The notes: generated by a model from the sequence alone, not told the origin. Positions 2,075-64,000 are shown, counted from the first letter of the stretch. The stretch: 64,000 nt of DNA from a virus (IMGVR_UViG_3300026116_000003:10136-74135); one strand, 5' to 3'. Numbers and translations: made by a program.

Positions 2075-2656
2075 TTACTTAGCTGCCGGGATGCGGACGA
2101 ATTGAGCCGGCGTGAACCGAACGGCTTGCGAGCGCAAAGAATCGTTGAAGATACCGAGCGCAAGTTCCATCTTCTCTTGATTCGCTAGGGCTCGATTGTA
2201 GGGCAAGCGAGTCCAGCCGACTGTCCCGCTCGCGGTATGCTTGACGAAATAGCGAGTTGTCCAGCCGACGTCTTTGAATTCGACCTCGATTGCATCGCCT
2301 ACTTTCAAGTCAAACAGGCCGTTCTCGCTGGCGATATTCTGCCGCGCTTGCTTGCGGGCAAACTCGCTTGAGCGACGCTTTTCCTTCAAGTCCATTGCTT
2401 CGACTTGCGCCGCGTGGACCGTTGCGCTAGCGACGTTCCCCAGCACTGTCAACATGCGGAAAGGAACGGTCCAGAGTCCCTTCGATTCCCCTTCTGGCAT
2501 TACTTCAGCGACTTGATGCTGGATGGAGGGGAGCCCGAACTTGGCGAATTTGCGCCCGCGTTCAATCGTCTTGAGCCGAACCACGACTCCAGTAACTTGA
2601 CCGCGACGCCCGTTAAACCGCACTCTTGCACCGACTTTGATTTCGTTTTTTGTCAT
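2075..2656 (-). CDS. Hypothetical protein (SH3-like N-terminus)
   Basis: ORF starts 6 nt after repeat/promoter copy 1; IKVGARVRF and LKVGDAIEV beta-barrel-like starts. Confidence 0.8.
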   Translation of the reverse strand: MTKNEIKVGARVRFNGRRGQVTGVVVRLKTIERGRKFAKFGLPSIQHQVAEVMPEGESKGLWTVPFRMLTVLGNVASATVHAAQVEAMDLKEKRRSSEFARKQARQNIASENGLFDLKVGDAIEVEFKDVGWTTRYFVKHTASGTVGWTRLPYNRALANQEKMELALGIFNDSLRSQAVRFTPAQFVRIPAAK

Positions 2657-2662
2657 ACTAAG

Positions 2663-2690
2663 TTATCGACGCCCTGTGGAAATACTTTAG
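2663..2690 (-). promoter_or_regulatory. Cassette repeat copy 1; sigma28-like promoter
   Basis: CTAAA GTATTTCCACAGGGC GTCGATAA, then 6 nt, then ATG(2656); the TAA is the stop of the upstream gene. Confidence 0.75.
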
Positions 2691-3028
2691 CTCTTTGTTC
2701 CGATAAAAGTTACCGGAGTCGTAAAGTGCGCTAGGGAGAGCGGATAGCGCTCTTTTCCCAAGTGCAAAAGGACTTGCTTTGCGTGGTCGAGCGCATGGGC
2801 TTGAATCTTCGGCCAGTTGCGGTCGCTGACGAACCAGCGCTTGTTTTCTTTGTCAGCGAGCGCAAAGAAGTGGTCTGGAATCAAGTTGCGCCGCGCGTCG
2901 TCTTTGCTATAGTCGCTCAACTTAGCCGGAGTCCGTCCGCTAGCTAATATACATTCGCAGCCCTTGAGCCACGTATAAACCATCCACTCGCCCGCTTCCC
3001 GATTCAGTTGTCTTATTGTTCGTTTCAT
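2687..3028 (-). CDS. Hypothetical protein (true start MKRTIRQ at 3028)
   Basis: ATG 7 nt downstream of repeat copy 2; the longer ORF call merely reads through the repeat. Confidence 0.75.
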   Translation of the reverse strand: MKRTIRQLNREAGEWMVYTWLKGCECILASGRTPAKLSDYSKDDARRNLIPDHFFALADKENKRWFVSDRNWPKIQAHALDHAKQVLLHLGKERYPLSLAHFTTPVTFIGTKS

Positions 3029-3035
3029 ACCAGTA

Positions 3036-3063
3036 TTATCGTCAGCCCTTAGGGATACTTTAG
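3036..3063 (-). promoter_or_regulatory. Cassette repeat copy 2; sigma28-like promoter
   Basis: CTAAA GTATCCCTAAGGGCT GACGATAA, then 7 nt, then ATG(3028). Confidence 0.75.
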
Positions 3064-3242
3064 TCCAATTGAAACATATCTTTGATTGCCTCCAGGATAT
3101 CGCAATCCCGTATCGGCGGCAGGTCGCCGGCGATGTAATGCTCGAAAGCGCCCTTGCGATACCAATTGTCAAACTTCTGGCTTTTAAGCGTATCCAGTAT
3201 CTTTTGAGCCACTTTGTCTTGATTCGATTTGTTTTTATTCAT
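3060..3242 (-). CDS. Hypothetical protein (start MNKNKSNQ at 3242)
   Basis: ATG 7 nt after repeat copy 3; stop TAA lies inside repeat copy 2. Confidence 0.7.
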   Translation of the reverse strand: MNKNKSNQDKVAQKILDTLKSQKFDNWYRKGAFEHYIAGDLPPIRDCDILEAIKDMFQLD

Positions 3243-3249
3243 ACCAGTA

Positions 3250-3277
3250 TTATCGTCAGCCCTTAGGGATACTTTAG
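3250..3277 (-). promoter_or_regulatory. Cassette repeat copy 3; sigma28-like promoter
   Basis: Identical to copy 2, including the TACTGGT-ATG junction. Confidence 0.75.
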
Positions 3278-3666
3278 CTTTTCTTTTTGCACTCCGGCCC
3301 GATACCGGATTCGATTGATTCCGGAACCGTGAGCTTGCGACCGCAGCGGCAACATTTGCCGGCGTGCTGGATTTCAACTTTCCCGGCGAGCTCGTTCAAG
3401 TGAGACCAGATATACGCGAAGGCTACCGCGCTAGGAGCGCTTGGAGCAATCGAAGAGCGAAGTCCATGGCGGTAATTCTCTCCGTTGAAAATCGTCCCGA
3501 GGAACGTATAGCTCGATTCGTTGTCGGGGCCCGTAAGGACTTTGACGAAGTGGGGCGACTCCGGCTTGGGCTGACGAATCTTGTAAGTAAAGCGAGTCCC
3601 GGTCTTGAGCGACGTAGCGGTAAACGTAGCGTTCCCCGCCAGCGCGAATTCTTTAATATTTATCAT
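3274..3666 (-). CDS. DUF6011 zinc-ribbon protein
   Basis: C-terminal CCRCGRKLTVPESIESGIGPEC signature. Confidence 0.85.
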   Translation of the reverse strand: MINIKEFALAGNATFTATSLKTGTRFTYKIRQPKPESPHFVKVLTGPDNESSYTFLGTIFNGENYRHGLRSSIAPSAPSAVAFAYIWSHLNELAGKVEIQHAGKCCRCGRKLTVPESIESGIGPECKKKS

Positions 3667-3672
3667 ACAAGT

Positions 3673-3700
3673 ATATCGTCAGCCCTTAGGGATACTTTAG
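3673..3700 (-). promoter_or_regulatory. Cassette repeat copy 4; sigma28-like promoter
   Basis: CTAAA GTATCCCTAAGGGCT GACGATAT, then 6 nt, then ATG(3666). Confidence 0.75.
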
Positions 3701-4458
3701 CTGACTAACTTCATTTCAGAAGGCTTGGTCCCCGGTGCGAATCGGACTTCACTTGCGAAGCTGGCTTTTAGCGCTTTCATCGCTTCAGCTTGCTTGACGC
3801 GAAGAGCCACGATTTTCTCCCATTGCCCGACTGTGAACGTCTCGCCCTTGTAGGTGAGCTTGCCGTTCTCTTCGACGCGAAACCCCTCTGGCGTCGAGTA
3901 TTCCGACAACCAGCTCTGCTGAGTAAGTTGCTTGACGAATTCCTTGCTAATAGGGGCGGCGATGAACGTCCGATAGCGAGCTTCTGTTGCCGCTTTGATT
4001 TGCTCGACCGAGCGCTCGTGTTGAGCGACGCCGACGATTTCCCGAATCTTCTCTAGCGCTTTGGCTTTCTGCTTTGCGTCGAGCCCGAGCTCCCGGCCGT
4101 TGCCGATTTTCAGCCACTTAGTATCGCCGTAATCGCCGATAACGAGCTTCCAGCCAGTGCAATGCCCACTGGACCACTTGCTTGAGCCCGTATACATATT
4201 CTCAATTCGAACGCGAACACCGAGCGCCCTAGTCCCGTCCGTAGCCGGGTCGAGTTGCCGCAAGACCGCGAGCTCGGCTACATTTTGCTCAATTTGCGCT
4301 TGAGCGCGGGAAGCCAGTTCTTGCTCGTGCTTTACGATACGCTCGGAGGGTTCGATACCGTTCATCATTCCAGCTTCAATCGCGTCTTTGTTGATATCGT
4401 TGAATTCGGTACAGAACTGCGTGGACTTTTCGACTTTGATATTTTGATTCGTTGTCAT
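3697..4458 (-). CDS. Hypothetical protein
   Basis: 253-aa ORF with A-rich leader; stop inside repeat copy 4. Confidence 0.8.
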   Translation of the reverse strand: MTTNQNIKVEKSTQFCTEFNDINKDAIEAGMMNGIEPSERIVKHEQELASRAQAQIEQNVAELAVLRQLDPATDGTRALGVRVRIENMYTGSSKWSSGHCTGWKLVIGDYGDTKWLKIGNGRELGLDAKQKAKALEKIREIVGVAQHERSVEQIKAATEARYRTFIAAPISKEFVKQLTQQSWLSEYSTPEGFRVEENGKLTYKGETFTVGQWEKIVALRVKQAEAMKALKASFASEVRFAPGTKPSEMKLVS

Positions 4459-4492
4459 ATTTTGATTTTGTTTTTTTGCCCTTGTAAGAGAG

Positions 4493-4520
4493 TTATCGTC
4501 AGAGTAGGGAAATACTTTAG
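4493..4520 (-). promoter_or_regulatory. Cassette repeat copy 5 (leadered variant)
   Basis: CTAAA GTATTTCCCTACTCT GACGATAA; 34 nt of A-rich sequence to ATG(4458). Confidence 0.7.
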
Positions 4521-4521
4521 C

Positions 4522-4719
4522 TCAAACTTTAGAAACTCGAACGAACGCCAGCCCGTAAGAGCTAGAGTCTTGAGCGATATCGTTGTGCTTCGCCCAAGCT
4601 CTCAAAGCTTCCAGCGTGAATAATGAACCCGCGTATTGCTTCGACGTTGCTTCAACCGTTAGCTCAGTCGTCTCGTATCCGACCGCCGTTACCGTTACTT
4701 TGAATTTGTTCGTTTTCAT
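4522..4719 (-). CDS. Small hypothetical protein under the sigma54-type module
   Basis: ATG 11 nt downstream of TTGCT; stop TGA abuts repeat copy 5 (TGA-GC-TAAAG). Confidence 0.7.
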   Translation of the reverse strand: MKTNKFKVTVTAVGYETTELTVEATSKQYAGSLFTLEALRAWAKHNDIAQDSSSYGLAFVRVSKV

Positions 4720-4846
4720 ACTCCCCTAATAGCAAGCTCGATACCACTACTGTATTATCTCTAACACGTTGAGTTTAAGCCAAACCTTAAATCGACTCTT
4801 TCCCTAGTGTCCCAAATCGAGATAGACACTGTCTCAAATTTGGACT
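4717..4846 (-). promoter_or_regulatory. Sigma54 (RpoN)-type promoter module, copy 1
   Basis: TGGTAT-CGAGC-TTGCT (GG-N10-GC) at 4746-4731; IHF-like ACTCAA-CGTG-TTA at 4774-4762; two TGTC-N9-GACA-like sites at 4808-4824 and 4830-4846. Confidence 0.75.
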
Positions 4847-4851
4847 GGAGC

Positions 4852-4948
4852 TTCTTTCGCGTAGCGTCTCGCTTCGGAAAGACGTCCTAATCCGTCAGGA
4901 TTGCACGCCAGGACCGTTTGGATTTGCTTTTGAGTGTCAATATAGCGG
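4852..4948 (+). repeat. Dispersed repeat family, copy A
   Basis: GTCCTAATCCGTCAGGATTGCACGCCAGGACC...TTGCTTTTGAGTGTCAATATAGCGG. Confidence 0.8.
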
Positions 4949-4965
4949 CCTGCTAGGGTAACGTC

Positions 4966-5466
4966 CTATAACTTAAAGCTCAAAGCGTAGCGAGTCGCTA
5001 CTTCGTTCGGCTCGTAGAAGTGGCCCTCGGCTGCGGCTTGAGATACGTCTTGCCAGAGGAAGTCCGGCGGCTTAGGGGCGAGCCATTCCATCCCGAGCGT
5101 CGAGACGAAAGCCGGGAACGTCCCGGTAGAGAAGTCTACTATCTCGTTCGTATCCGGCAACGCAATCCAGACATGCATCTCGGGGATTCCTCCGGACGCC
5201 ATAGCGAGTATTGAGTTGAAGTCCGTCGGGCTCCACTTGAAAGCGAAGTGCGTCCCGCGCACGCCGTCGTCGAGATGCTTGGGGACGATTTCCCATTGCA
5301 TCGTCCCCGCTTGCAGGACGGGGCGATAGAAGCGCGGGTAACGGCTCAAGACTTCCATCCCAATCTTCGCTAAGTAAGCGCAAGCGCGGTGCGGTTCGAT
5401 ATCCGCGTGGCGCTCTTTGAAGAGCCGCTGGACCAGCTCAAAGATTCGTTGACGAGCTTCGTTCAT
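4966..5466 (-). CDS. Hypothetical protein (possible transglutaminase/papain-like fold)
   Basis: ORF; C...HVWI...IVDFS arrangement suggests a Cys-His-Asp triad; ATGA coupling to the upstream gene. Confidence 0.7.
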   Translation of the reverse strand: MNEARQRIFELVQRLFKERHADIEPHRACAYLAKIGMEVLSRYPRFYRPVLQAGTMQWEIVPKHLDDGVRGTHFAFKWSPTDFNSILAMASGGIPEMHVWIALPDTNEIVDFSTGTFPAFVSTLGMEWLAPKPPDFLWQDVSQAAAEGHFYEPNEVATRYALSFKL

Positions 5467-5930
5467 ATCCCTGCCTTTAGCTTGAGCTTTTCCAGCGCAG
5501 CTCTCGCTTTAACTTTGATTTGCCCTTCCCATTCGGTATCCTGCCGCCCGAGCGTCAGGCCGTGGTATGCGTCGAGCAAGTCCTTCAGCGCCTGCCAATC
5601 TTCGCTCGCTCGCTCGTCTCTCTTGCTTCGTCGCTTGTCGCAATCGCAAGCAACTACGTGCCCGTGTTTGTCGCACCAGTGCGTCGGTCGTTTGGGGTGG
5701 CAATCTAAACTTCCGTCAATCCGATAGTCTTGCGGCAAGTAATCTTCGGTCTCAATCCACTGGCGAATTGCTTTCGCTTCTTCCGCGCTAAAGTAAGCCT
5801 CTATCGGCCCGCGGCGAAAGAGCAGTGCGTCTCTTCGCTCTTTCGTAATCGTGTGCCCGTGGACTAGCAATCGCCCAGCTTCCGTTGCGTTGAGGTCTCG
5901 CACCAGTTTGTCTCTTGTATTGATACTCAT
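5463..5930 (-). CDS. Hypothetical protein
   Basis: ORF translationally coupled in the 4966-6950 operon. Confidence 0.7.
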   Translation of the reverse strand: MSINTRDKLVRDLNATEAGRLLVHGHTITKERRDALLFRRGPIEAYFSAEEAKAIRQWIETEDYLPQDYRIDGSLDCHPKRPTHWCDKHGHVVACDCDKRRSKRDERASEDWQALKDLLDAYHGLTLGRQDTEWEGQIKVKARAALEKLKLKAGI

Positions 5931-5931
5931 A

Positions 5932-6240
5932 TCAGTAATCTCCAGTCGGTTCGTTGCGCCCCATGACTTCGTTGTAATATCCCATCGGGTCGGCTTCTCG
6001 CGTGCAACTATCGCAGTGGTATCCGTGCGCTTTTTGATACGACGAGCGCAAGCGAGATTTGCACGTCGGGCACAATAGCGGATGATTTTCAGGAGGAAGT
6101 CCGTTCGTCTCTTTCTCTACTTTCGGGATTCCAGTGGCGCAAGCTTTGCACTTCCCGGCGTGCTCTCTAGCGTATTTCTTCGACGTAAGAGCACCGCACG
6201 AACACCGGACCGTAAACTGCTTGAATTGAAAGTTGCTCAT
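5932..6240 (-). CDS. Zinc-finger hypothetical protein
   Basis: CSC, CKAC, CPTC and CDSC motifs. Confidence 0.75.
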   Translation of the reverse strand: MSNFQFKQFTVRCSCGALTSKKYAREHAGKCKACATGIPKVEKETNGLPPENHPLLCPTCKSRLRSSYQKAHGYHCDSCTREADPMGYYNEVMGRNEPTGDY

Positions 6241-6950
6241 ATTCCAATCCTCCCATTCGCTTTGCCGCTGCCGACTTGATTGAGGCGAATCTGCTGCCCC
6301 TTAGCTCGCCCGAAAGCGTAAGCCGAGTTGCTGACTTGTTGCGCCCGAGCTTTCGAGCGAATCAATACGGGGAAGTCTTGCGCCACGCGCTTCGATATCA
6401 GAGCGTCTTTATTGACGACAATCAGCGCCCAGCAACTCGCTTCCTTCGGAGTCAGCTTCGCTTCTTCGCGCCGGTTCACTTCGATAATTCCGTCGCAGAG
6501 CCCGCGAAAGACTCCGTTCTTGTTTGCGGCGCAACTGACCATCCCGTTTTTCTCGGCGTGGTAATACGTCGAGGGAAAGACTTTCTCCAGATAGGGGAAG
6601 AGCTCCCGGCAGATGGCGACGTCCGTCGCTTCTCCGATAAAGATAGCCTTCGTGCCACTGATGATAACTTGAACGCCGAAGCACTGGCGCAGCACGCGAT
6701 AAATCCACGTATGGTAGGGCTTTTGAGCGCTCGTCTTTATCTGGATATCGGCGCGGTCGATTTCAATCGACGAGCCAGCAGAACGACCGGCCGCCATATC
6801 AATCGACGCCAGTTCAATCCCGTGCTTCATGGCCAGCTCTTTCGCTTTGCCCATCGCCGCTTCCATCTCGCCTTGCGAAGCGTTGCCGTGAGACAGCGCG
6901 AGGCACTTGCGAATCTTTTCAATCACCGCCGAGTTCATTTGATTTGTCAT
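6237..6950 (-). CDS. DUF2786 domain protein
   Basis: N-terminal IEKIRKCLALSHGNASQGEMEAAMGKAKELAMKHGI; C-terminal AYAFGRAKGQQIRLN. Confidence 0.85.
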   Translation of the reverse strand: MTNQMNSAVIEKIRKCLALSHGNASQGEMEAAMGKAKELAMKHGIELASIDMAAGRSAGSSIEIDRADIQIKTSAQKPYHTWIYRVLRQCFGVQVIISGTKAIFIGEATDVAICRELFPYLEKVFPSTYYHAEKNGMVSCAANKNGVFRGLCDGIIEVNRREEAKLTPKEASCWALIVVNKDALISKRVAQDFPVLIRSKARAQQVSNSAYAFGRAKGQQIRLNQVGSGKANGRIGI

Positions 6951-6983
6951 AACTTGTTTTTTTTGTTTCGCCCTGTGGAAAGT

Positions 6984-7011
6984 ATATCGTCAGCCCTTAG
7001 GGATACTTTAG
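6984..7011 (-). promoter_or_regulatory. Cassette repeat copy 6 (leadered variant)
   Basis: CTAAA GTATCCCTAAGGGCT GACGATAT; 33 nt to ATG(6950). Confidence 0.7.
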
Positions 7012-7012
7012 C

Positions 7013-7309
7013 TCAAATCGAGAAATCAATTACGACGCTCGCAACTGTCGCAACCACAACCGTGAACTTTACCCACCAGTGCGATTGATTCGCTACGCTC
7101 GCTCCGCCGCGGAACGCCGCGTAGTGCTCGCCCTCGTCGACTAACACTGCGCCGGGAACGGCCGCGATTACTTGAGCCGCGTAGCTTTCCGCGCTACCGC
7201 CGTGACGATAGTAGAACCCGTGGCGAGCAGTAAAGACGCCATTCCGCAAGCTTATTGAATCCGCCGATATTAGTTCCTCGATTTGCTTTATTGTCATTTT
7301 GTTTTTCAT
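7013..7309 (-). CDS. Hypothetical protein under the sigma54-type module
   Basis: Same upstream module as 4522-4719; TGA-GC-TAAAG junction to repeat copy 6. Confidence 0.75.
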   Translation of the reverse strand: MKNKMTIKQIEELISADSISLRNGVFTARHGFYYRHGGSAESYAAQVIAAVPGAVLVDEGEHYAAFRGGASVANQSHWWVKFTVVVATVASVVIDFSI

Positions 7310-7436
7310 ACTCCCCTAATAGCAAGCTCGATACCACTACTGTATTATCTCTAAGTGCTTGAGTTTAAGCCAAACCCTAAATTGAAGATTCCCCTAGTGT
7401 CTCGCTCCTAGATAGACAGTGTCCCGTTTCGAGTCA
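7307..7436 (-). promoter_or_regulatory. Sigma54 (RpoN)-type promoter module, copy 2
   Basis: Colinear with 4717-4846 at offset 2590; -24/-12 at 7336-7321; IHF-like ACTCAA-GCAC-TTA; TGTC-N9-GATA/GTCA sites at 7398-7414 and 7420-7436. Confidence 0.75.
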
Positions 7437-7712
7437 AAACCCCCGAGTTTGCCCGAAAGTTCCCCACTTGCTGATAAATTCCAGGTCCAGGAGGACTTGC
7501 TTCGTTATCGGGCTCACCGCAGGTTCTGCCGGAACGCTAGCCAGGGCGCGTGAACGCACGCTCGCTTGACGTTGCTCGACGAGCGCCGGGATTGACGCTA
7601 GGTTGGTCGAGACGTAGAGCAAACAAGCGAGAGCCAGCCAGAACGTCTTGAGACTCGCTACCGCTGGCGTCGGTCCAACCAGCACGTCGAATTCGAAAGC
7701 GTCATTGTTCAT
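7434..7712 (-). CDS. Hypothetical protein with one hydrophobic segment
   Basis: FWLALACLLYVS stretch. Confidence 0.65.
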   Translation of the reverse strand: MNNDAFEFDVLVGPTPAVASLKTFWLALACLLYVSTNLASIPALVEQRQASVRSRALASVPAEPAVSPITKQVLLDLEFISKWGTFGQTRGF

Positions 7713-7730
7713 ACTGGTAAAATCGCTAAA

Positions 7731-7922
7731 TCAATGAGCCGAAGCTACATACCACTTGTTATCTACGCCGAGCACAATTTGAAACTTTCCCTTGTGAGAG
7801 ACGAAAACAGCCGGCGGCATTCCGCAGGGGCGAGGACGAAGCTCTACAATCGCCGCCGTCAAAGGCACGCCATTTTCAATTTCGACTTGCACTAAATCAC
7901 CGACTTTTAAGTTTTTCTTCAT
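7731..7922 (-). CDS. Small hypothetical protein
   Basis: ATG 7 nt after repeat copy 7. Confidence 0.7.
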   Translation of the reverse strand: MKKNLKVGDLVQVEIENGVPLTAAIVELRPRPCGMPPAVFVSHKGKFQIVLGVDNKWYVASAH

Positions 7923-7929
7923 ACTAGAG

Positions 7930-7957
7930 TTATCGTCAGCCCTTAGGGATACTTTAG
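7930..7957 (-). promoter_or_regulatory. Cassette repeat copy 7; sigma28-like promoter
   Basis: CTAAA GTATCCCTAAGGGCT GACGATAA, then 7 nt, then ATG(7922). Confidence 0.75.
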
Positions 7958-7964
7958 CTTTATC

Positions 7965-8354
7965 TCAAAGCTTTGCAGCCGCAAGCACTTCAGCCCGGAG
8001 CTTAGCCGCGCAGGGAGCGCAGTAGCCGTGAGAGACGAAGCTCCCAAGCGCCTTGCTGCGCTCTTTGTTATCGCAAGCGCAACAGAGCCAGAGCATAATC
8101 TCTTTGCCACGACAAGCAGCTTCGCGGACGAGCGCCAGCGCCGTCAAGTCCGTAATCTTTACTAGCTCGCTCGTTGAGCACCGAGTCCAGTCTCCGCCGC
8201 TAACGGTAAATCCGGCCGGAGCGCCCGTATAGTGCAAGCGCGGGCGGATTTCAGTTTTCGTCCCGTCCAAGTCCCAAATATTGTAGCCGACGCCAGGAGC
8301 GGTCGATTCCAGAGACTTTACCGCCGCCGCAAGTTTGATTGTCATATTCTTCAT
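7965..8354 (-). CDS. Hypothetical protein with C-terminal zinc finger
   Basis: CCAC...SHGYCAPC motif; ATG 7 nt after repeat copy 8. Confidence 0.75.
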   Translation of the reverse strand: MKNMTIKLAAAVKSLESTAPGVGYNIWDLDGTKTEIRPRLHYTGAPAGFTVSGGDWTRCSTSELVKITDLTALALVREAACRGKEIMLWLCCACDNKERSKALGSFVSHGYCAPCAAKLRAEVLAAAKL

Positions 8355-8361
8355 ACCCTAG

Positions 8362-8389
8362 TTATCGACGCCCTTAGAGAATACTTTAG
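8362..8389 (-). promoter_or_regulatory. Cassette repeat copy 8; sigma28-like promoter
   Basis: CTAAA GTATTCTCTAAGGGC GTCGATAA, then 7 nt, then ATG(8354). Confidence 0.75.
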
Positions 8390-8544
8390 GGGCGATTGAT
8401 ATATCCACTGGGGTTGCGCTTAGCGTCTTCCAGCAAGAGAGCCAGGAGGAACAAAGTATCAGTCTCGCTTTGCGCCATACCGAGCGACTCCGCGCGCTTC
8501 CGGTCAGCGATTAGCGAGTCAATTATTTCATCAAAAGTTTTCAT
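8386..8544 (-). CDS. 52-aa hypothetical protein (MKTFDEIIDSLIADRK...INRP), below the ORF-track cutoff
   Basis: Manual translation; ATGA overlap with the upstream stop; TAA inside repeat copy 8. Confidence 0.65.
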   Translation of the reverse strand: MKTFDEIIDSLIADRKRAESLGMAQSETDTLFLLALLLEDAKRNPSGYINRP

Positions 8545-8723
8545 ATCATTCCGTTCGCGTCGAGCTCGTCATAGAGCGCTTTCGTCTTCGTTACCATATT
8601 ATTGTCTCGCTTGAGCCGGCGGAGCTGAACCAAGACGTCGATTACTTCCTCGTCAGTTATCGGCTCGCCCAAATACTTTGCCATAATTTGCTTCGCCGTG
8701 AGTTTCTTTGTTTTGCTTTTCAT
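8541..8723 (-). CDS. Small hypothetical protein (start MKSKTKK)
   Basis: ATGA overlap with 8720-8965. Confidence 0.65.
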   Translation of the reverse strand: MKSKTKKLTAKQIMAKYLGEPITDEEVIDVLVQLRRLKRDNNMVTKTKALYDELDANGMI

Positions 8724-8965
8724 AAAATTGTAACGCACGGAGCGAAGTGAAAATCCCGCATTGCTTGTTCGATAGTCATCCCTTCAGCTTCGCCCGTAAC
8801 AAAGTCTCCATACATCAATTCGGCTGCGTCTGCCCGAGTCTCGAAGTCTCCAGTATATTGCTCTTCGTGCTTTAGTTTTTTGCAGTCCTTGCAATCAGCA
8901 GCGTGGACAATAAAGACGCCTTTGGATTGGTCCCGCAAATTAGGTCCGAAAATTGTCAGTTTCAT
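8720..8965 (-). CDS. Hypothetical protein
   Basis: ATGA-coupled ORF; VHAADCKDC...APC. Confidence 0.7.
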   Translation of the reverse strand: MKLTIFGPNLRDQSKGVFIVHAADCKDCKKLKHEEQYTGDFETRADAAELMYGDFVTGEAEGMTIEQAMRDFHFAPCVTIL

Positions 8966-9258
8966 AAATCTTGCAAGTAGGGGTTGGGTTTGTAGGTCGG
9001 TTCGGGCTTGACGTTGAGCTTTTTGGGCATCATGGCGAGCGCTCGTTCCATCGGAGTTTGCTTTACGTCGAAGTGAATCAAGACCGGTTGGTAAACGAAG
9101 ACTCCACGACGACCGGCGTAAGCGCGCACGTCTTCGATACTTTCGAAGCGAGTTGCCTTTTCGTGATTGCGTATCGACTTGAATCCAGTCGGCGGGACGT
9201 CTACTAAATACACGTTTTTCTTCTCAAACCAAATTACCCATTTGCTATCAATTTTCAT
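8962..9258 (-). CDS. Hypothetical protein
   Basis: ATG 6 nt after repeat copy 9. Confidence 0.7.
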   Translation of the reverse strand: MKIDSKWVIWFEKKNVYLVDVPPTGFKSIRNHEKATRFESIEDVRAYAGRRGVFVYQPVLIHFDVKQTPMERALAMMPKKLNVKPEPTYKPNPYLQDL

Positions 9259-9264
9259 ACTGGT

Positions 9265-9292
9265 ATATCGACGCCCTGTGGAAATACTTTAG
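9265..9292 (-). promoter_or_regulatory. Cassette repeat copy 9; sigma28-like promoter
   Basis: CTAAA GTATTTCCACAGGGC GTCGATAT, then 6 nt, then ATG(9258). Confidence 0.75.
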
Positions 9293-9293
9293 C

Positions 9294-9575
9294 TCAAGCT
9301 TTGAAATACTTTGCGATATCGGGAAAGTCTCGCTTGAGCGACGCTACAGCGAGCCGAGCGATTTCATTATCAACTTTGCGAATCTCCGCGTTGACTTGCT
9401 TGCAAGTTGCGTCAGCCATAAGCTTTATCGCTATGGGCGTGCAACCGTCGTATTTCCCGAAAGATGCTTGCTTGCTCAAAGCGTCTCGGATTTGGACAGT
9501 ATTCCAGCCGGCGTTTAGAAGCTCGCCGATTGCTTTTTGCAGTCTCGCTACCACCGTTTCGTTTATCTCGTTCAT
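9294..9575 (-). CDS. Hypothetical protein
   Basis: ORF between repeat copies 10 and 9. Confidence 0.7.
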   Translation of the reverse strand: MNEINETVVARLQKAIGELLNAGWNTVQIRDALSKQASFGKYDGCTPIAIKLMADATCKQVNAEIRKVDNEIARLAVASLKRDFPDIAKYFKA

Positions 9576-9582
9576 ACTAGAG

Positions 9583-9605
9583 TTCAGCCCTTAGGGATAC
9601 TTTAG
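9583..9605 (-). promoter_or_regulatory. Cassette repeat copy 10, with a 5-bp deletion in the -10 box
   Basis: CTAAAGTATCCCTAAGGGCTG-AACTCTAGTATG versus copy 7 ...GGGCTGACGATAACTCTAGTATG. Confidence 0.7.
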
Positions 9606-9606
9606 C

Positions 9607-9789
9607 TCAATCTTGAAGAGCGATTGCAGCCGCGCGGGCAAGCTCGACGCCCTTGCTAATCCGGTCCCGTTCGATTAAGAGCAACGGCTTGAGCATCGTC
9701 GATACTCGCGGCGACTTGATTAAGCGGTCGAGACGGTCCCAATCGGCTCGGATAGAGCGAAACTCTGCATGGGCTTGTAAATAAGTCAT
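9607..9789 (-). CDS. Small hypothetical protein
   Basis: ORF ending in TGA-GC-TAAAG at repeat copy 10. Confidence 0.65.
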   Translation of the reverse strand: MTYLQAHAEFRSIRADWDRLDRLIKSPRVSTMLKPLLLIERDRISKGVELARAAAIALQD

Positions 9790-9795
9790 AAAAGC

Positions 9796-9978
9796 TTAGT
9801 TTTCAAAACATTGGACCCACTTAACGACTTGAGACGTAGAGCTACGGATTGTGCTCAAGACGCGCCTGGCGCGGCTCGGCTCGATATCCATCGGGAGCAA
9901 TCCTTCAAGCCGCTCGATTGCTTGTTTCATTTGCGTCAGCTCTTCCTGGATTCTATCGTATTCGATTGATTTATTCAT
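9796..9978 (-). CDS. Small hypothetical protein (start MNKSIEY)
   Basis: ATG 7 nt after repeat copy 11. Confidence 0.65.
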   Translation of the reverse strand: MNKSIEYDRIQEELTQMKQAIERLEGLLPMDIEPSRARRVLSTIRSSTSQVVKWVQCFEN

Positions 9979-9985
9979 ACTCAAG

Positions 9986-10013
9986 TTATCGACGCCCTTA
10001 GGGAATACTTTAG
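9986..10013 (-). promoter_or_regulatory. Cassette repeat copy 11; sigma28-like promoter
   Basis: CTAAA GTATTCCCTAAGGGC GTCGATAA, then 7 nt, then ATG(9978). Confidence 0.75.
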
Positions 10014-10252
10014 CTCAAAGTTGCAAAGACTTCAGAGATAACATAAGCCCAGCCCCGTCGATTGAACTGCTGACGAATCCCGTTCCCTACCATTACATTA
10101 TACGGTTCGAGATTTGCGCCGGCATCTTTGACAAGCTTTAAGATAATCCAGCGTCCGTTGTCGCTCGATATTCGATAGAATTGGCATTCCACGATTCTGT
10201 GGTCGATTTTGAATTGCCCGACTTGCGATTGACTTGTTGCTATATATTTCAT
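10010..10252 (-). CDS. Hypothetical protein
   Basis: Exactly bounded by repeat copies 12 and 11. Confidence 0.7.
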   Translation of the reverse strand: MKYIATSQSQVGQFKIDHRIVECQFYRISSDNGRWIILKLVKDAGANLEPYNVMVGNGIRQQFNRRGWAYVISEVFATLS

Positions 10253-10259
10253 ACTAGAG

Positions 10260-10287
10260 TTATCGACGCCCTTAGGGAATACTTTAG
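10260..10287 (-). promoter_or_regulatory. Cassette repeat copy 12; sigma28-like promoter
   Basis: CTAAA GTATTCCCTAAGGGC GTCGATAA, then 7 nt, then ATG(10252). Confidence 0.75.
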
Positions 10288-10294
10288 CCCTTAT

Positions 10295-11161
10295 TTACAG
10301 TCCAGCAACTTTGCGAATCAATCGAAGCTCTTTCTTCGAAGACTCTGCCGGGTCTTTCGCGTCAATTACGATATTCTCCGTTACCCCAGGGAAGCAAGCG
10401 AGCAAGTCCGCCAGCTCCCGCGCCCGCGCTTGAGCGTCGAGCGACGAGTCCAGGCAGATGTAACGTCTCGGAAACCCAGCCAGCGTCTTTACTTGCTCGC
10501 TTGTCCAGGCGAGCCCAAAGAGCGCTCCAGCGCCGGGACCGACGGCCCAAGCGTCAATAGGGCCCTCGACGATTACGACGGCGTGGCGGCACCAATCCGC
10601 TCCATAAATAACGTGTTTGAGATTGATACTCGCTTCCGTCTCGGGCGCAGACAAGTATCGCTTCGCTGCACGGTCTCCGATTGCGCGAGTTGTCCAGCTA
10701 ACGCGGACTCGCTTGCTCAATATCGGAATGTAGATTCGCCAAGCGAGTCGAGCGTCTATCCCGATTCCCTCGACTTGCCAGAGACGCTGAATCTCTTCGG
10801 GGTCAAATCCACGACGCTTGAGATAGTCCCGGTGGCAGCGTTGCAACGGGCCCCGTCCGCCGGGCTCTTTCAATCTCCCAGACCACTCCGCTTTCTCCGG
10901 CTCTTTCCCTAGCTCGTAATCGTGGAGAAACTCCCGGATGGTTGACGACGAGACTCCGAGCTTGAGCAACGTCTCCCAAACCGGATGCCAGCGACATTTC
11001 CAGCAAGCGAAAAACTTGTCAGAGAGATTGAACCCCAAGTGGTAATTTTGCGAGCCGCAAAAGGGACAAACTCTAACTTGCAGCCAGCCAGTCCGGCAAT
11101 GGTTGTGTCCCGACTCCAGATAGTCGAGTCCAGCGCCAGCTAGTAATTCCTGGATAGTCAT
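10295..11161 (-). CDS. DNA primase (zinc finger + TOPRIM)
   Basis: CPFC...CWKC zinc finger; YLKRRG; VIVEGPIDA, ALFG, ICLDS and KDPAE TOPRIM motifs; start MTIQELL. Confidence 0.85.
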   Translation of the reverse strand: MTIQELLAGAGLDYLESGHNHCRTGWLQVRVCPFCGSQNYHLGFNLSDKFFACWKCRWHPVWETLLKLGVSSSTIREFLHDYELGKEPEKAEWSGRLKEPGGRGPLQRCHRDYLKRRGFDPEEIQRLWQVEGIGIDARLAWRIYIPILSKRVRVSWTTRAIGDRAAKRYLSAPETEASINLKHVIYGADWCRHAVVIVEGPIDAWAVGPGAGALFGLAWTSEQVKTLAGFPRRYICLDSSLDAQARARELADLLACFPGVTENIVIDAKDPAESSKKELRLIRKVAGL

Positions 11162-11313
11162 TTCCTCAGGATATATTGGCGCATCAACTTGACGATAGCC
11201 TCCTGCATCGTCTGCCCCTTGCGAGCGCAAGCCGCCTTGAATTGGTTCTTGGTATCAATCGGGATACCCTTGAAAAACAAAACACCTTTGTGGTGCTGCA
11301 GTTCCGATTTCAT
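11158..11313 (-). CDS. Ribbon-helix-helix (ParG/Arc-like) DNA-binding protein
   Basis: LFFKGIPIDTKNQFKAACARKGQTMQEAIVKLMRQY; ATGA coupling on both sides. Confidence 0.75.
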   Translation of the reverse strand: MKSELQHHKGVLFFKGIPIDTKNQFKAACARKGQTMQEAIVKLMRQYILRK

Positions 11314-12905: not shown

Positions 12906-13475
12906 TTAATGAGCCCACACTTCCCAAAACCGCAATTCAATCTCTCGTTGCGCTCGCTCGATGCGTCGCTTGTCCAGGCCTTTGCTCTGGAGATATTCTT
13001 TGACTCTCGCCAGCAGTTGCTTCGGCGTCATCTTGCTCCCCAAGTCCAGACTTTCTCCGCGACGCGGGCCAGCAGCAATCCGCCCCACTTCCAGAATCTC
13101 CGCCGGGGTCTCCAGCAGGAGACTGATTATCTCTTGAGCGTCTTCCGACAAGCCACCAATCATATCCATAATCTCGCTACGTTGCTCCGGCGCGAATCCA
13201 GTCAACTCGTCGTTCATCTCCGTGCAGATTAGCGGGTCTCTCGTCCGCTTCGTTATCCAGCTGCGCAAGCTCGTCCAGACCTTAAAGTAGCACCAGGAAG
13301 AGAACTTAGAACCGCGGCGGCTATCGTAAGTTTGACAAGCGAGCATGAAGGCCAGATAAGCCTCGCTCCGCGACTCTTCGAAAGTTACTGGACAAGCTTG
13401 CGCGACTTTCCACGCCAGACTGCAGAGCATTTTTTCCACTTTGGGAAATTCAATTTGCGGGTCGATTTTTGTCAT
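12906..13475 (-). CDS. Phage RNA polymerase sigma70-family-like protein (region 2 plus degenerate region 4)
   Basis: LAWKV...EESRSEAYLAFMLACQTYDSRRGSKFSSWCY resembles region 2.2-2.3 (FDPxRGxKFSTYA); LSEDAQEIISLL resembles region 4.1. Confidence 0.7.
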   Translation of the reverse strand: MTKIDPQIEFPKVEKMLCSLAWKVAQACPVTFEESRSEAYLAFMLACQTYDSRRGSKFSSWCYFKVWTSLRSWITKRTRDPLICTEMNDELTGFAPEQRSEIMDMIGGLSEDAQEIISLLLETPAEILEVGRIAAGPRRGESLDLGSKMTPKQLLARVKEYLQSKGLDKRRIERAQREIELRFWEVWAH

Positions 13476-13711: not shown

Positions 13712-14770
13712 GTGAAACTAGAGTCGATTACGCTAAACAATTTCCAAGCGCACGAGCGCCTAGAAATAAAGTTCTCTCCGACGATTACCACCATCAAGGG
13801 CGCTACTGACAAGGGCAAGAGTGCAGTCCTGCGGGCGTTGCGTTGGGTCTGCTTAAATGACACGGCAGGGGTGGACTTCATTAAGGAGGGGACCAAACGG
13901 GCTATCGTTACGCTGACTGTCGTTCACGAGCCGGCTCCGTTAGTCCGGTTGGAAGAAGTGATAGTCCGCAGCAAGAACGTCGACGGAGCGACTAATACGT
14001 ATGCACTGGACGGGAAGGAATTCAAAGCGTTCGGGCAAGGCGTCCCTCCAGACATCGCCAAAACCCTAGCTCTAAGTGAAATCAATTTCCAGGGGCAGCA
14101 CGACTCTCCATTTTGGTTTGCCGAGACGTCTGGAGAAGTATCGCGGAGATTGAACGCAGTGATTGACTTGTCGATAATTGATACAGCGCTGGCTAATATC
14201 GGCGCCGAAGTCCGTCGAGCTTCAGAGCGGAAAAGCTTGGGCGAAGAGCGATTGAACGAAGCGAAGACGCAACTGGAAGAGCTCGCCCCGCAGCGGGAAC
14301 GGATTGAGGAATTTCACAATGTTAAAGTCAAACAAACTACGCTTAAAGCCGTTGCTGAAGATTACGATAAACTGGCAGACGTCCTGGAGCGGGCAAGTTC
14401 TAATCAAGCAAGGGTCCTTGCTGCCAAAGCAGCCGACGGCGGTGAGCTATTGGCAGCAATACTATCCGCTCGTCGAGCGCAACGAAGTGCTGAAATGCTG
14501 GAGGAGATTATCTATTCAATAGGCAAGTGGCAAAGCAAAGCAAAGCCGCCGCCGGACTTTCACCCAGTACAGATGGCTTGGGGAACTTGGGCAGACGCAC
14601 GAGCGAAAGCAGAGAGACTATCAACTTTGACTGGTATCGTATTTGATAAACTTTCTATTATTCGCACACTAGCGGAAGAAGCTCAACAAGCCGAAGCAAA
14701 GTTTCACGCGCAAGTGCGCGGCAAAGTTTGTCCGCTATGCAAACAGATAATTGAACTTGATGAAAGATAA
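13712..14770 (+). CDS. SbcC/Rad50-like ATPase, N-terminal half
   Basis: ITLNNFQAH, Walker A GATDKGKS, Q-loop FQGQHD, coiled coil, terminal zinc hook CPLC; no Walker B. Confidence 0.85.
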   Translation: MKLESITLNNFQAHERLEIKFSPTITTIKGATDKGKSAVLRALRWVCLNDTAGVDFIKEGTKRAIVTLTVVHEPAPLVRLEEVIVRSKNVDGATNTYALDGKEFKAFGQGVPPDIAKTLALSEINFQGQHDSPFWFAETSGEVSRRLNAVIDLSIIDTALANIGAEVRRASERKSLGEERLNEAKTQLEELAPQRERIEEFHNVKVKQTTLKAVAEDYDKLADVLERASSNQARVLAAKAADGGELLAAILSARRAQRSAEMLEEIIYSIGKWQSKAKPPPDFHPVQMAWGTWADARAKAERLSTLTGIVFDKLSIIRTLAEEAQQAEAKFHAQVRGKVCPLCKQIIELDER

Positions 14771-15707
14771 GCCTTATCCGATAGCCCTAGCCGTTGCCGA
14801 CTTGCATCTCTCTTTGCTCCAGCCGGCTTGCCGAGCCGATAAGAGCTGGACGGACGTGCAAGCGGGATACCTCGAGCAACTAAAAGAGATTGCTGAAATT
14901 CGAATGACAGACGGTTCGCTTAGAACTTTGCCTATCCTCTGCGCGGGAGATATTTTTGATAGATGGAACGCCAGCCCCGAGTTGATTAACTTTGCATTGC
15001 ACTGGTTACCCGATGGTATGCTGTGCGTCCCTGGCCAGCACGACTTGCCGCTCCACCGGAGCGACTTGATGCACCGCTCCGGATACGGAGTATTGAAAAA
15101 AGTAGGGAAGATTAGAGACTTGTCTGAAGATGTGGTAACGATAGCAGCGGAGAGATTGATGGTGCATGGATACGGATGGGAGCAAGAAATTGAACCGCTG
15201 GAAAGTAAATCCCGAGACCGCTTTCTCTACGTCGCCCTCATTCACCGCTACGTATGGACAGTCGAAGCTGGCTATCCGGGAGCGCCACAGTCTTCCCACT
15301 TGAGCTCGCTAATGAAAAGCTTGAAGGGTTACGACGTGGCAATCATCGGGGACAACCACAAGCCCTTTTTGAAAGAGCTAAAGAACGGCTGCACGGCTTA
15401 CGGGTGCGGAACTTTTATCCGCCGCAAGACGGACGAGATTGACTACGCTCCTAGCGTGGGAATTATTTACTCTGATGGAAAGGTAAAGCGCAAGCTGCTC
15501 GACATCTCTGGAGACCGCTTCCACGAAAGCGCTAAAGACCGTCCAGAGACAGCTTTTAATATGAAAGAGTTTATCGAAGGGCTGGAAGAGCTCGGCGAGC
15601 ACGGGCTGGACTTTAAGGCAGCCGTTGAGAATCACCTCAAGAATGAGGACGTTCATCCGCAAGTAAAGGAAATTATCTTGGCCGCGTTAGATAATACGAG
15701 AGTATGA
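14760..15707 (+). CDS. SbcD/Mre11-like metallophosphoesterase nuclease
   Basis: ADLH, AGDIFD, PGQHD, IH and GDNH phosphoesterase motifs. Confidence 0.88.
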   Translation: MKDKPYPIALAVADLHLSLLQPACRADKSWTDVQAGYLEQLKEIAEIRMTDGSLRTLPILCAGDIFDRWNASPELINFALHWLPDGMLCVPGQHDLPLHRSDLMHRSGYGVLKKVGKIRDLSEDVVTIAAERLMVHGYGWEQEIEPLESKSRDRFLYVALIHRYVWTVEAGYPGAPQSSHLSSLMKSLKGYDVAIIGDNHKPFLKELKNGCTAYGCGTFIRRKTDEIDYAPSVGIIYSDGKVKRKLLDISGDRFHESAKDRPETAFNMKEFIEGLEELGEHGLDFKAAVENHLKNEDVHPQVKEIILAALDNTRV

Positions 15708-16087: not shown

Positions 16088-16333
16088 ATGAGCAACGAAA
16101 TCACAGAAGAGAAGTATCGAAAGTTAAAGCAGCAAGTCGAAGAGACGAAAGCCGAAGCAAGCCGGGCCCAGGGAGCGTTGGACCAGCTGCTCACCCGGCT
16201 GAAAGAGGAGTTTGATTGCTCTAGCTTGAAGGAAGCAAAAGCCAAGCTGACCGAACTGGAGGCAAAGAAAAAGAAAGCGGAGTCCGTATTTGAAAAAGTG
16301 CTGGCCGACTACGAGGAGAAATGGAAGCAATGA
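16088..16333 (+). CDS. Coiled-coil protein (possible accessory of the split Rad50)
   Basis: Heptad-rich 81-aa ORF. Confidence 0.75.
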   Translation: MSNEITEEKYRKLKQQVEETKAEASRAQGALDQLLTRLKEEFDCSSLKEAKAKLTELEAKKKKAESVFEKVLADYEEKWKQ

Positions 16334-62176: not shown

Positions 62177-62529
62177 AGCAGCCCCTTGCCGGTAAAAGAT
62201 TCATACGTCTTTACTTTGCGCTCGAGGTCTGCTACTTCAGCTTTGAGCTGCGTATTTTCTTCCTGCAATGTTATCACGTCCACTACAGTACCGTCGACCA
62301 GCGGACGGAAAGAAGCGACGAGCAAGCCGGGCCGCAGCACGTTGCTAGCTGCTCCCGCGCAGAAGTTGACGCAGCGGACTACCCGCTCCGTATTAGCGCG
62401 GGCTTCAATCAAGTTGCGCCCGCGCCCGCCAGCCGTCGAGACGTAAGCCAGCATCCCTTCTGGCCCGCTGGCGATTTCCGTTCCGGACCCTTCGGGCATT
62501 ACAAACCATGGCTCTTTCGTATGCGTCAT
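62173..62529 (-). CDS. Hypothetical protein (HTxxPW...ANxxRIVxCVN phage family)
   Basis: MTHTKEPW; ARANTERVVRCVN. Confidence 0.7.
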   Translation of the reverse strand: MTHTKEPWFVMPEGSGTEIASGPEGMLAYVSTAGGRGRNLIEARANTERVVRCVNFCAGAASNVLRPGLLVASFRPLVDGTVVDVITLQEENTQLKAEVADLERKVKTYESFTGKGLL

Positions 62530-63590
62530 ATATATCTCCGCTTTCTTTCTGGCAGACATTCACTTTCAATTTGTTTCCAAACCATCTCCGTCAGCTCCAC
62601 TACTTTTTGCTCCAGCCCCTCTTCCTCGATATGAGCGATAACTGCCCCACGCGAACCGGTAAACAGAATATCTTTTGCGTCAATCTCCTTGTCTTCGTTC
62701 TTTTTCCAGTGCTTCTCGGCCACCAGAAAATCGACGCACGAACCCACATCGTCAATTCCCAGACCGTAGTAAATCGGTATCTGCACCGCACGGTCTTTGC
62801 CCACTTTACCCGTCACCCTATTCTTCTTTACCTCGGCCAGGCAACGAGCCCCCACCGTGCGCGGCTTTCCTCTCACCGTTCGCAAAATCTTCCCCGCCAC
62901 GCTCGTCCATATTTCCAAGTTGGCGTAGAACCGCAACGCTCGCCCTCCAGCTCTGGTCCGCGTCTCAAATCCGAACTTGAGATTGTCTCGTGTCTGCCCG
63001 ATAACCAGGAGAATAGATTTCGTCCGCCGCAGCCCCGCGAGGACGTGGCGTAAATTCTCGCTATGGTATTTGGCTTTGCTGTCTCCATACGAGCCCTTGG
63101 AATCCTCTCCCTCCTCGGCGGCTTTCTTCTGGATGGCAAACTTTTTAGCAGCAGCTTTGGAAGTCAGCGCGTCTTGAGAATCGAGTACGTAGATAAACGG
63201 CCGGCGAGCTTTAATCAAGTCAGCCATGCGGTAGTAGAAAGATTCAATCGTGCTGGACTGGACCCACTTCATCCGCTTGGCCATATCCTTCCCAAAGTAG
63301 TGCGCGACATCCATCAAAGCTCCGCCCTCCACGTCGTCGTAAATCAGCTCGTAATTCTTGAAAGCCGGAGAGCGGCACGCTTCCGCGAAGCAAGACAAGC
63401 TTAGCCACGTCTTGCCGGAGACGCTATCCCCGACCAGATAGTAGTAGGCTCCTTTGAGATACCCGCAATCCGCACGGTCCGTACAAGCTAAATTGAGGAG
63501 AGTGCTCCCCGTCGAGAGAGCACCCTCCTTAGACAATACCGACTTCTCACGCGGCGCCAGCAATGCTTTCTTGTCCGCCGCGGTATTCAT
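62526..63590 (-). CDS. RecA/UvsX-like recombinase
   Basis: STGSTLLNLA, Walker A GDSVSGKT, DVEG, VLDS, IGQTR, GGRALRFYA, VKKNRV, GIDD; start MNTAAD. Confidence 0.88.
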   Translation of the reverse strand: MNTAADKKALLAPREKSVLSKEGALSTGSTLLNLACTDRADCGYLKGAYYYLVGDSVSGKTWLSLSCFAEACRSPAFKNYELIYDDVEGGALMDVAHYFGKDMAKRMKWVQSSTIESFYYRMADLIKARRPFIYVLDSQDALTSKAAAKKFAIQKKAAEEGEDSKGSYGDSKAKYHSENLRHVLAGLRRTKSILLVIGQTRDNLKFGFETRTRAGGRALRFYANLEIWTSVAGKILRTVRGKPRTVGARCLAEVKKNRVTGKVGKDRAVQIPIYYGLGIDDVGSCVDFLVAEKHWKKNEDKEIDAKDILFTGSRGAVIAHIEEEGLEQKVVELTEMVWKQIESECLPERKRRYI

Positions 63591-64000
63591 TACTTCTTCT
63601 TTTTCTTCGGCGCGGGCTCTTCGTCCCAATCGTCCTCGTCATCGTCTTCTTCGTCCTCGTCGTCTTTTACCGGCTTCTTCTTTTTCTTCGGAGCTTCGTC
63701 CTCTTCGTCGTCGTCTACTCGTTTCTTTTTCTTCGGAGCTGGAGCTTCTTCTTCTTCATCTTCCTCTTCATCTTCGTCAGCGTCCCAGCCCTTGTCATCT
63801 TTCTGGGAAGCAAAGCGATTTTTCTTTTTAGGTCGGGCTTCATCTTCGTCTTCCTCTTCGTCGTCAGTATCTTCTTCCTCGTCTTCGTCGTCGTCAGTAT
63901 CTTCTTCCTCGTCTTCGTCGTCGTCAGCCGGTTTCTTTTTCTTCTTTACAACGTGGTCTTTATCTTCATCGTCCACGTCGTCCTCGTCTTCGTCGTCGTC
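63590..64000 (-). CDS. Partial CDS: Asp/Glu- and Lys-rich low-complexity C-terminal tail (possibly of an ssDNA-binding protein)
   Basis: Frame open to the window edge; DDEDEEE and PKKKK blocks; upstream of the RecA-like gene. Confidence 0.6.
   Translation of the reverse strand, partial: DDDEDEDDVDDEDKDHVVKKKKKPADDDEDEEEDTDDDEDEEEDTDDEEEDEDEARPKKKNRFASQKDDKGWDADEDEEEDEEEEAPAPKKKKRVDDDEEDEAPKKKKKPVKDDEDEEDDDEDDWDEEPAPKKKKK

Follow-up and report, generated by a model that had tools for sequence, protein, structure and literature searches.

The 64,000-nucleotide (nt) window analyzed here comprises bases 10136-74135 of the genome of an uncultured soil phage (IMGVR_UViG_3300026116_000003, referred to below as G000), a complete IMG/VR virus record of 74,135 bp with a 90-bp terminal overlap; coordinates are those of the window unless 'genome' is stated. 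Within 7.6 kb of that window (2654-10287), a repeat of 38-45 nt, which we term R1, is found in 12 copies, all of them on the minus strand and co-oriented, at the junctions between neighboring open reading frames (ORFs). We propose, with a probability of roughly 60%, that R1 is a promoter of the sigma-28 class that fills the whole gap between adjoining genes (its -35 box beginning with the TAA stop codon of the upstream gene, and its -10 box lying 5-7 nt before the ATG of the next), such that promoter and ORF together would constitute a minimal, self-sufficient expression unit. The 7.6-kb block would then represent a hyperplastic accessory region of a 74-kb siphovirus, in which genes turn over as whole units with junctions at gene starts, and in which identical tracts of 9-17 nt within R1 would act as crossover points, resulting in clean loss or gain of cassettes and in chimeric repeats, as has been proposed for the promoter-early stem-loop (PeSL) elements; the exchange itself would probably be performed by the phage's UvsX/UvsY and Rad50/Mre11-like proteins. 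An initial annotation of this DNA had described the repeat and had interpreted repeat plus ORF as a module shuffled by recombination; its observation was confirmed, and its interpretation is partly supported.

The fusion of R1 to the ends of genes was found as that annotation had described it. Six copies have a TAAAG box whose TAA doubles as the stop codon of the preceding ORF (ORFs ending at 2687, 3060, 3274, 3697, 8386 and 10010), and in four others the junction reads TGA-GC-TAAAG (ORFs ending at 4522, 7013, 9294 and 9607); the two remaining upstream ORFs stop 11 nt ahead of the box. The distance from TAAAG to the ATG that follows is 33-34 nt in nine copies, 29 nt in the copy with its box at 9604, and 60-61 nt in those at 7010 and 4519. 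The spacers fall into the alleles that had been listed: the CCCTAAGGGCT type accounts for six copies, the TCCCTAAGGGC type for three, including one variant, and the TTCCACAGGGC type for two, and a single copy has another spacer. A 6-nt upstream extension, TTGAGC, is frequent, and places TGA and TAA in two frames at the 5' edge of the repeat; a third-frame TAA lies inside the spacer. The core pattern of R1 was matched 11 times, compared with 0.33 matches expected from shuffled sequences. Beyond the window, at genome position 7663, there is a thirteenth copy in degenerate form. In the segment around it (genome 7560-7670; L076), the degenerate R1 directly follows the DnaB-like gene and is itself followed by a hairpin-bearing leader of ~95 nt and by a lysine-rich minus-strand ORF of 219 amino acids (aa); a plus-strand ORF at the same location is probably spurious.

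A pattern scan also recovered a complete relative (G001; IMGVR_UViG_3300005844_000001; 75,073 bp) that is collinear with G000 at ~95% identity and carries 14 R1 copies in its array, and both haplotypes were re-recovered in other metagenomes, as contigs that are either G000-like (L123 and L072) or G001-like (L087, L091, L103, L135 and L011). A distant phage fragment (G002; 31 kb, 59% G+C), which has only two short nucleotide matches to G000, contains nine R1-class promoters in two clusters, and keeps both boxes, their spacing, the same distance to the ATG and the coincidence of TAA with the upstream stop codon, with a spacer that varies. Furthermore, a short contig that encodes a 67%-identical helicase (L013; IMGVR_UViG_3300037484_001915) ends at an R1-like promoter with one mismatch and another spacer (4136-4162); the array layout probably extends to that lineage. 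The loss of CGATA from the -10 box of R1 copy 3 is limited to G000, the five bases being intact in G001 and in four metagenome contigs (L087, L103 and L011 among them), and reflects either promoter decay or an assembly error.

In G000, 6 of 12 copies have a box TAA that is also the stop codon of the upstream ORF; the corresponding counts, obtained with a longest-open-frame heuristic, are 9 of 14 for G001 and 7 of 9 for G002. The pooled proportion (22 of 35, against an expected one third) corresponds to a binomial P of 3e-4, a value that is optimistic in that the copies in G000 and G001 are partly orthologous; considered singly, G002 is significant (P 0.008) and G000 is not (P 0.18). The weld of stop codon to promoter box exceeds chance once the relatives are added, and is an old, conserved layout, because it recurs in the distant G002 and in that proportion of copies over three genomes.

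As judged from its boxes and their spacing, R1 is a predicted promoter of the sigma-28 (FliA/SigD/WhiG) class. The sigma-28 consensus corresponds to TAAAGTTT-n11-GCCGATAA (PMC2859248, Table 1), and actinobacterial WhiG displays the same specificity as sigma-28 (PMC8325347). Promoters that depend on sigma-28 have TAAA(GTTT) at -35 and GCCGATAA at -10, with a gap of 11 nt (corresponding to 15 nt from TAAA to the -10 octamer). The pattern TAAAGTWT-N11-GNCGATAA was matched with zero or one mismatch by 11 of the 12 copies in the window (copy 1 having none) and by one copy outside of it, all on the coding strand, as well as by 8-9 of the copies in G002; in shuffled sequences, approximately two matches are expected at up to three mismatches. 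The R1 search pattern also retrieved paired bacterial sigma-28-type promoters from metagenome contigs of 58-60% G+C. With the class 3 flagellar, SigD and WhiG promoters of bacteria (PMC2859248, PMC8325347), R1 has in common TAAAG(T) at -35, a CGATAA core at -10 and the 11-nt gap between octamers; it differs from them in being located in a phage, twelve in a row, with a constrained spacer and fused to stop and start codons, and in having, in G000, A or T at the second position of the -10 octamer, which is C in the bacterial consensus. The R1 boxes do not match the TTGACA/TATAAT boxes of sigma-70-like early promoters. Promoters of the N4 type (hairpin) and of the T7 type (single-subunit polymerase) were ruled out, because neither a gene for a giant or single-subunit RNA polymerase nor a stable hairpin is present, as was an extracytoplasmic function-type promoter for the phage's own sigma-like protein, since the boxes equal the sigma-28 consensus and that protein and the motif do not co-occur. 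When folded as RNA, R1 behaved no better than shuffled sequence (z-scores of -0.13 to +1.13), and its CCC/GGG stem comprises only 3 bp with no U run after it.

Because the -10 core of R1 ends 5-7 nt before the ATG (with no Shine-Dalgarno sequence between them), transcription should begin on the A of that codon or one base before it, which would generate a leaderless mRNA. A second and unrelated element, R2, adds to the case for leaderless transcription, in that its predicted start also falls on an ATG. R2 is ~135 nt in length, contains upstream inverted repeats, includes roughly the first seven codons of the downstream ORF, and is present in two copies in G000 and three in G001, the third of which lies directly after the primase gene. 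Purifying selection acts on the array ORFs when these are read from the R1-terminal ATG: 10 orthologue pairs between G000 and G001 gave pN/pS values of 0.05-0.26 (pooled, 0.20).

The two closely related genomes differ by ~10 large indels or replacements within the 7.6-kb array, versus ~9 in the other 66 kb. Three of these are clean indels of a single cassette, in which both ends lie within R1 and one chimeric repeat is left behind; the crossovers fall in tracts of R1 identity of 9 nt (113-aa ORF, at CTAAAGTAT), 17 nt (74-aa ORF) and 14 nt (83-aa ORF). The first of these cassettes is absent from G001 and present in G000 and contig L123, and the other two are found only in G001; these presence/absence differences uphold the earlier suggestion that repeat plus ORF is a unit of gain and loss. 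A fourth event concerns a 65-aa ORF, which is preceded by R2 in G000 and by R1 in G001; roughly four other events have a single end within R1 or R2. The promoters ahead of unrelated ORFs are nearly identical, and each of the four possible pairings of spacer alleles with alleles of the -10-to-ATG segment is represented, an indication of exchange inside R1. The 74-aa cassette has a 41%-identical homologue (E 8e-16) in G002 that is also behind a sigma-28-type promoter, the 129-aa cassette has a 49%-identical homologue in the other, non-syntenic cluster of that fragment, and synonymous divergence differs five-fold between neighboring cassettes. Within the G001-like variant represented by L103 (Ga0207712_10008920, 3589-3701), a 166-nt deletion with 2 nt of microhomology has its start precisely where an R1 copy ends on its 3' side, and eliminates the start codon and ~55 codons of the 83-aa cassette.

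Several observations weigh against the combined model of promoter and crossover site. Across the 22 junctions of the array, breakpoints were found at 10 of 14 that contain R1 or R2 and at 6 of 8 that are repeat-free, a comparison with no statistical power; because repeat-free junctions break as often, R1 is not needed for plasticity. The repeat-free events (loss of a 102-aa ORF, a 371-nt insertion in G001 and one replacement) use 5-7 nt of identity at start codons, which are of the ATGA type in the first two. Breakpoints are also found inside an ORF of 129 aa that is internally mosaic; its divergence cannot be attributed to an allele swap bounded by two repeats, since the mosaic boundaries lie within the ORF. 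G000 and G001 have their shared cassettes in the same order, neither paralogues of cassettes nor circles were observed (and, among the metagenome matches, no circular contig of one cassette), and orthologous repeats keep the same allele in both genomes, such that there is no sign of recent gene conversion. In addition, the phage encodes a sigma-like protein beside the array, possession of a sigma-28-family factor by the host is assumed, and the R1 spacer is under strong constraint, for which a function outside the model is likely. The ends of contigs L011 and L072 lie inside R1 at polymorphic junctions; at 2 of ~12 contig ends, this was not beyond chance and was set aside.

Such observations are the substance of the strongest alternative, which we nevertheless consider unlikely: that R1 is only a promoter and a bystander filling half of the gene boundaries, and that the mosaicism is the product of quasi-random illegitimate recombination and of selection for intact genes, which could by itself place the breakpoints. 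The breakage of repeat-free junctions, the short microhomologies at the ATGA-type junctions and in the L103 deletion, and the intragenic mosaic of the 129-aa ORF would all be expected from it. However, in each of the three cleanest single-cassette indels the crossover falls within R1 identity and a single chimeric repeat remains, unrelated ORFs are preceded by near-identical promoters whose halves are reassorted, and random junctions would not give the observed enrichment of welds. Recombination at the repeats is plausible, and is neither exclusive nor proven. The shuffling between repeats that the initial annotation envisaged therefore stands in part: alignment of relatives, which it had suggested as a check, placed three indel crossovers within R1, and placed breakpoints equally often at junctions that have no repeat. 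Its further suggestion that cassettes are reordered rests on the one homologue in the non-syntenic array of G002, and is not reflected in the conserved order of the two close relatives. Genes do exist for the RecA-like and SbcCD proteins that it named as candidate catalysts (RecA/UvsX-like and Rad50/Mre11-like), as well as for a UvsY-like protein, and their role in the exchange is a probable one. The equal breakage of repeat-free junctions also urges caution against reading every repeat-flanked indel as repeat-mediated.

If R1 is a sigma-28-class promoter, its reader is somewhat more probably a host holoenzyme of the sigma-28 family than the sigma-like protein of the phage. In that protein, region 2 of the sigma-70 family is the only detectable region (Pfam E 4e-5, PDB profile E 5e-6, PHROG sigma factor E 4e-7); a search of its 189 residues detected no region 4, and the top matches of its fold are all sigma factors, of every class and of no particular one, with no special likeness to FliA or WhiG. 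A contig that encodes a 47%-identical homologue (L080) has no R1-type promoters within 20 kb, and G002 has nine sigma-28-type promoters and no homologue of the phage protein, though the fragment spans the whole non-structural region. The host factor is favored because the homologue is found without the motif, the motif is found without the homologue, and no region 4 is detectable; co-occurrence lends no support to a link between R1 and the phage protein. Homologues with 40-55% identity are also present in other uncultured phages that lack the R1 motif. That the phage protein itself reads R1, and that the array is a phage-timed middle regulon, is doubtful, somewhat more so than the bystander explanation above. 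The location of its gene ~2.6 kb ahead of the array, the orientation that gene and array have in common, its region 2 and its exclusively sigma-factor fold matches would suit such a role; opposed to it, together with the absences just described, is the fact that the R1 motif equals the sigma-28 consensus of cells, with respect to its two boxes and their spacing alike (PMC2859248).

The R1 spacer displays an unexpected degree of conservation: orthologous spacers in seven pairs harbor 0 differences in 77 positions, compared with 12.9 expected at a synonymous rate of 0.167 (P 8e-7), and the spacer pattern persists in G002. The premise from which recombination had initially been argued, namely that a promoter does not need to conserve its spacer, fails for this element, and because the spacer is constrained, its identity among copies is not usable as evidence of recent copying. 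The annotation had allowed that a transcription factor might explain the conservation; the constraint is indeed seen, and the factor would be a putative one. A 13-mer, TTTCCACAGGGCG, is the spacer of R1 copies 4 and 12, lies in the transcribed leader of copy 7, and is also the spacer of one promoter in the distant G002 (L078); it may be a protein-binding site. An improbable extension of this line of thought is that R1 is mainly an operator for a DNA-binding protein, similar to the stoperators of cluster A mycobacteriophages, and that its likeness to a promoter is secondary. The invariance of the spacer, the pattern that it has in common with G002, the recurrence of one 13-mer in spacer and leader, and the co-orientation of copies at gene junctions would fit that idea. 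In contrast, the parts of R1 that are best conserved across distant phages are the sigma-28 boxes, their canonical spacing and the fixed distance to the ATG; no repressor, lysogeny genes or integrase were found; and an operator within the promoter would add to the proposed model rather than replace it. An integron-like mechanism, in which a site-specific recombinase moves cassettes between repeats, is suggested solely by the look of one-gene units parted by a repeat and is close to refuted, in that the complete genome lacks tyrosine and serine recombinases (neither PF00589 nor PF00239 was matched), the repeats do not fold, the crossover points differ among events and each cassette has its own promoter.

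The array is embedded in a genome in which the minus strand carries nearly every gene, and which, by virtue of the terminase, portal, tape measure and J-like tail proteins that it encodes, is that of a siphovirus (Table 1). On the downstream side of the array are genes for a DUF932 protein, a replication initiator, a DnaB-like helicase, a sliding clamp, a UDG-exonuclease, a family A polymerase, a clamp loader and a UvsY-like protein. Seventeen of the 20 array ORFs submitted to searches matched no significant Pfam or PHROG family, megablast of the array region against 50,697 phage records gave no match, and a scan of the 237-aa cassette protein against genome contigs revealed no relative. Searches with the terminase, DNA polymerase and capsid protein recovered relatives only at 24-53% identity, with mixed hosts; a promoter array of this kind is absent from the best two isolated relatives, Brevundimonas phage MaInes and Rhizobium phage RHph_Y5A. 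Elsewhere in the window, two adjoining paralogous TET-associated glycosyltransferases (57298-59515, minus strand; Pfam TAGT, E 1e-49 each) suggest glycosylated hydroxymethyl-pyrimidine DNA, and a stand-alone CheY-like response-regulator receiver domain of 128 aa (27047-27433, minus strand; E 1e-17) is located amid the tail genes.

Table 1. Coordinates of the R1 and R2 elements, the array and neighboring genes in the window.
Feature	Position	Strand	T of TAAAG	Description
R1 copy 1	10250..10287	-	10286	ends in ATG of 80-aa ORF; upstream primase-like gene stops 11 nt before box
R1 copy 2	9976..10018	-	10012	includes TTGAGC 5' extension; its TAA is the stop of ORF 10010-10252
R1 copy 3	9573..9610	-	9604	decayed; 5 nt (CGATA of -10 box) deleted; before 93-aa ORF
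R1 copy 4	9256..9297	-	9291	TTCCACAGGGC spacer allele; TGA-GC-TAAAG closes ORF 9294-9575; extra cassette here in G001
R1 copy 5	8352..8389	-	8388	its TAA is the stop of ORF 8386-8544
R1 copy 6	7920..7957	-	7956	upstream ORF stops 11 nt before box
R1 copy 7	6948..7016	-	7010	27-nt A-rich leader, then ATG of 237-aa DUF2786/DUF7168 protein
R1 copy 8	4456..4525	-	4519	27-nt A-rich leader, then 253-aa ORF
R1 copy 9	3664..3700	-	3699	its TAA is the stop of ORF 3697-4458; precedes 130-aa DUF6011 protein
R1 copy 10	3240..3277	-	3276	its TAA is the stop of ORF 3274-3666; extra 74-aa cassette inserted here in G001
R1 copy 11	3026..3063	-	3062	its TAA is the stop of ORF 3060-3242; precedes G000-specific 113-aa cassette
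R1 copy 12	2654..2690	-	2689	its TAA is the stop of ORF 2687-3028; precedes conserved 193-aa gene
R2 copy	7291..7430	-		sigma-54-type -24/-12 element (TGGTAT-N5-TTGCT); ends on ATG of ORF 7013-7309
R2 copy	4704..4836	-		precedes 65-aa ORF 4522-4719
113-aa cassette ORF	2687..3028	-		single-cassette indel between G000 and G001
Array	2075..10252	-		22 ORFs (52-253 aa), mostly without known families
Primase	10295-11230			upstream of array
Helicase	11310-12662			upstream of array
Phage sigma-70-family protein	12906..13475	-		189 aa; upstream of array
Rad50-N/SbcC-like ATPase and Mre11/SbcD-like phosphoesterase	13712..15707	+		C-terminal ATPase part at 16321-16959
RecA/UvsX-like recombinase	62526..63629	-
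UvsY-like mediator	genome 1178-1687			outside window

A broader conception of this region may be entertained only tentatively, and is unlikely to hold in its entirety. The accessory genes of the phage might be wired to the sigma factors of host motility or development, by way of about a dozen leaderless sigma-28 units and two or three sigma-54 units with an enhancer; the invariant spacer would then be both the operator of a phage factor and a selected recombination linker that keeps exchanged genes expressible, and the system would be distinct both from integrons and from PeSL cassettes. If a host sigma factor is used, then the expression of accessory genes would be tied to the motility or developmental state of the host. 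Literature searches found no paper describing sigma-28-type leaderless promoter arrays in phages, nor do the papers searched report flagellar-type (sigma-28/WhiG) promoters in phages.

The closest known system is not the integron, but the PeSL cassettes of T4-like myoviruses (Arbiol et al. 2010, PMC2839356; Comeau et al. 2014, PMC4122927), and the initial annotation's comparison to promoter-cassette shuffling in T4-like phages was well chosen. According to the former report (PMC2839356), PeSL is, like R1, a repeated promoter motif in a hyperplastic region, situated directly upstream of ORFans and reaching from the stop codon of one gene to the start codon of the following one; as described there and in the latter report (PMC4122927), it flanks indels and replacements that separate 96%-identical phages, and leaves a chimeric copy behind. 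In both systems the phage encodes T4-style recombination proteins. PeSL cassettes are further marked by a stable stem-loop that serves as terminator or attenuator, and by mini-circles that arise through exchange between adjacent motifs. The two differ in promoter class (predicted sigma-28 for R1; sigma-70 with an AT-rich upstream region for PeSL), in the size of the unit (~40 nt versus ~100 nt) and in the type of phage (siphovirus versus myovirus); moreover, R1 has no stable stem-loop or terminator and no Shine-Dalgarno sequence, is predicted to be leaderless, and belongs to an array in which repeat-free junctions recombine as often as those that bear the repeat. Among archaeal viruses, the account of halovirus HF2 (PMC8707807) describes a tailed virus with short intergenic repeat families that are promoters for many genes; those promoters are archaeal, and differ from R1 in sequence and in the domain of the host.

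Integron arrays resemble the R1 array in their rows of single-gene units parted by a recurring element and in the gain and loss of whole units, and that analogy, as drawn in the initial annotation, proves to be a loose one: the R1 array has no integrase, no attC-like structure and no common Pc promoter, and the positions of its crossovers vary. The stoperators and start-associated sequences of mycobacteriophages are likewise short, co-oriented repeats at the stop/start junctions of many genes; they are repressor sites or translation-linked motifs rather than bipartite promoters whose distance to the ATG is fixed. R1 would provide, to our knowledge, the smallest self-contained expression unit known, spanning ~34 nt from stop codon to start codon with neither an untranslated leader nor a ribosome-binding site. 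Should the proposed model be correct, promoter-bounded cassette exchange would extend beyond the T4-like myoviruses to an unrelated siphovirus, where it would employ a different class of promoter.

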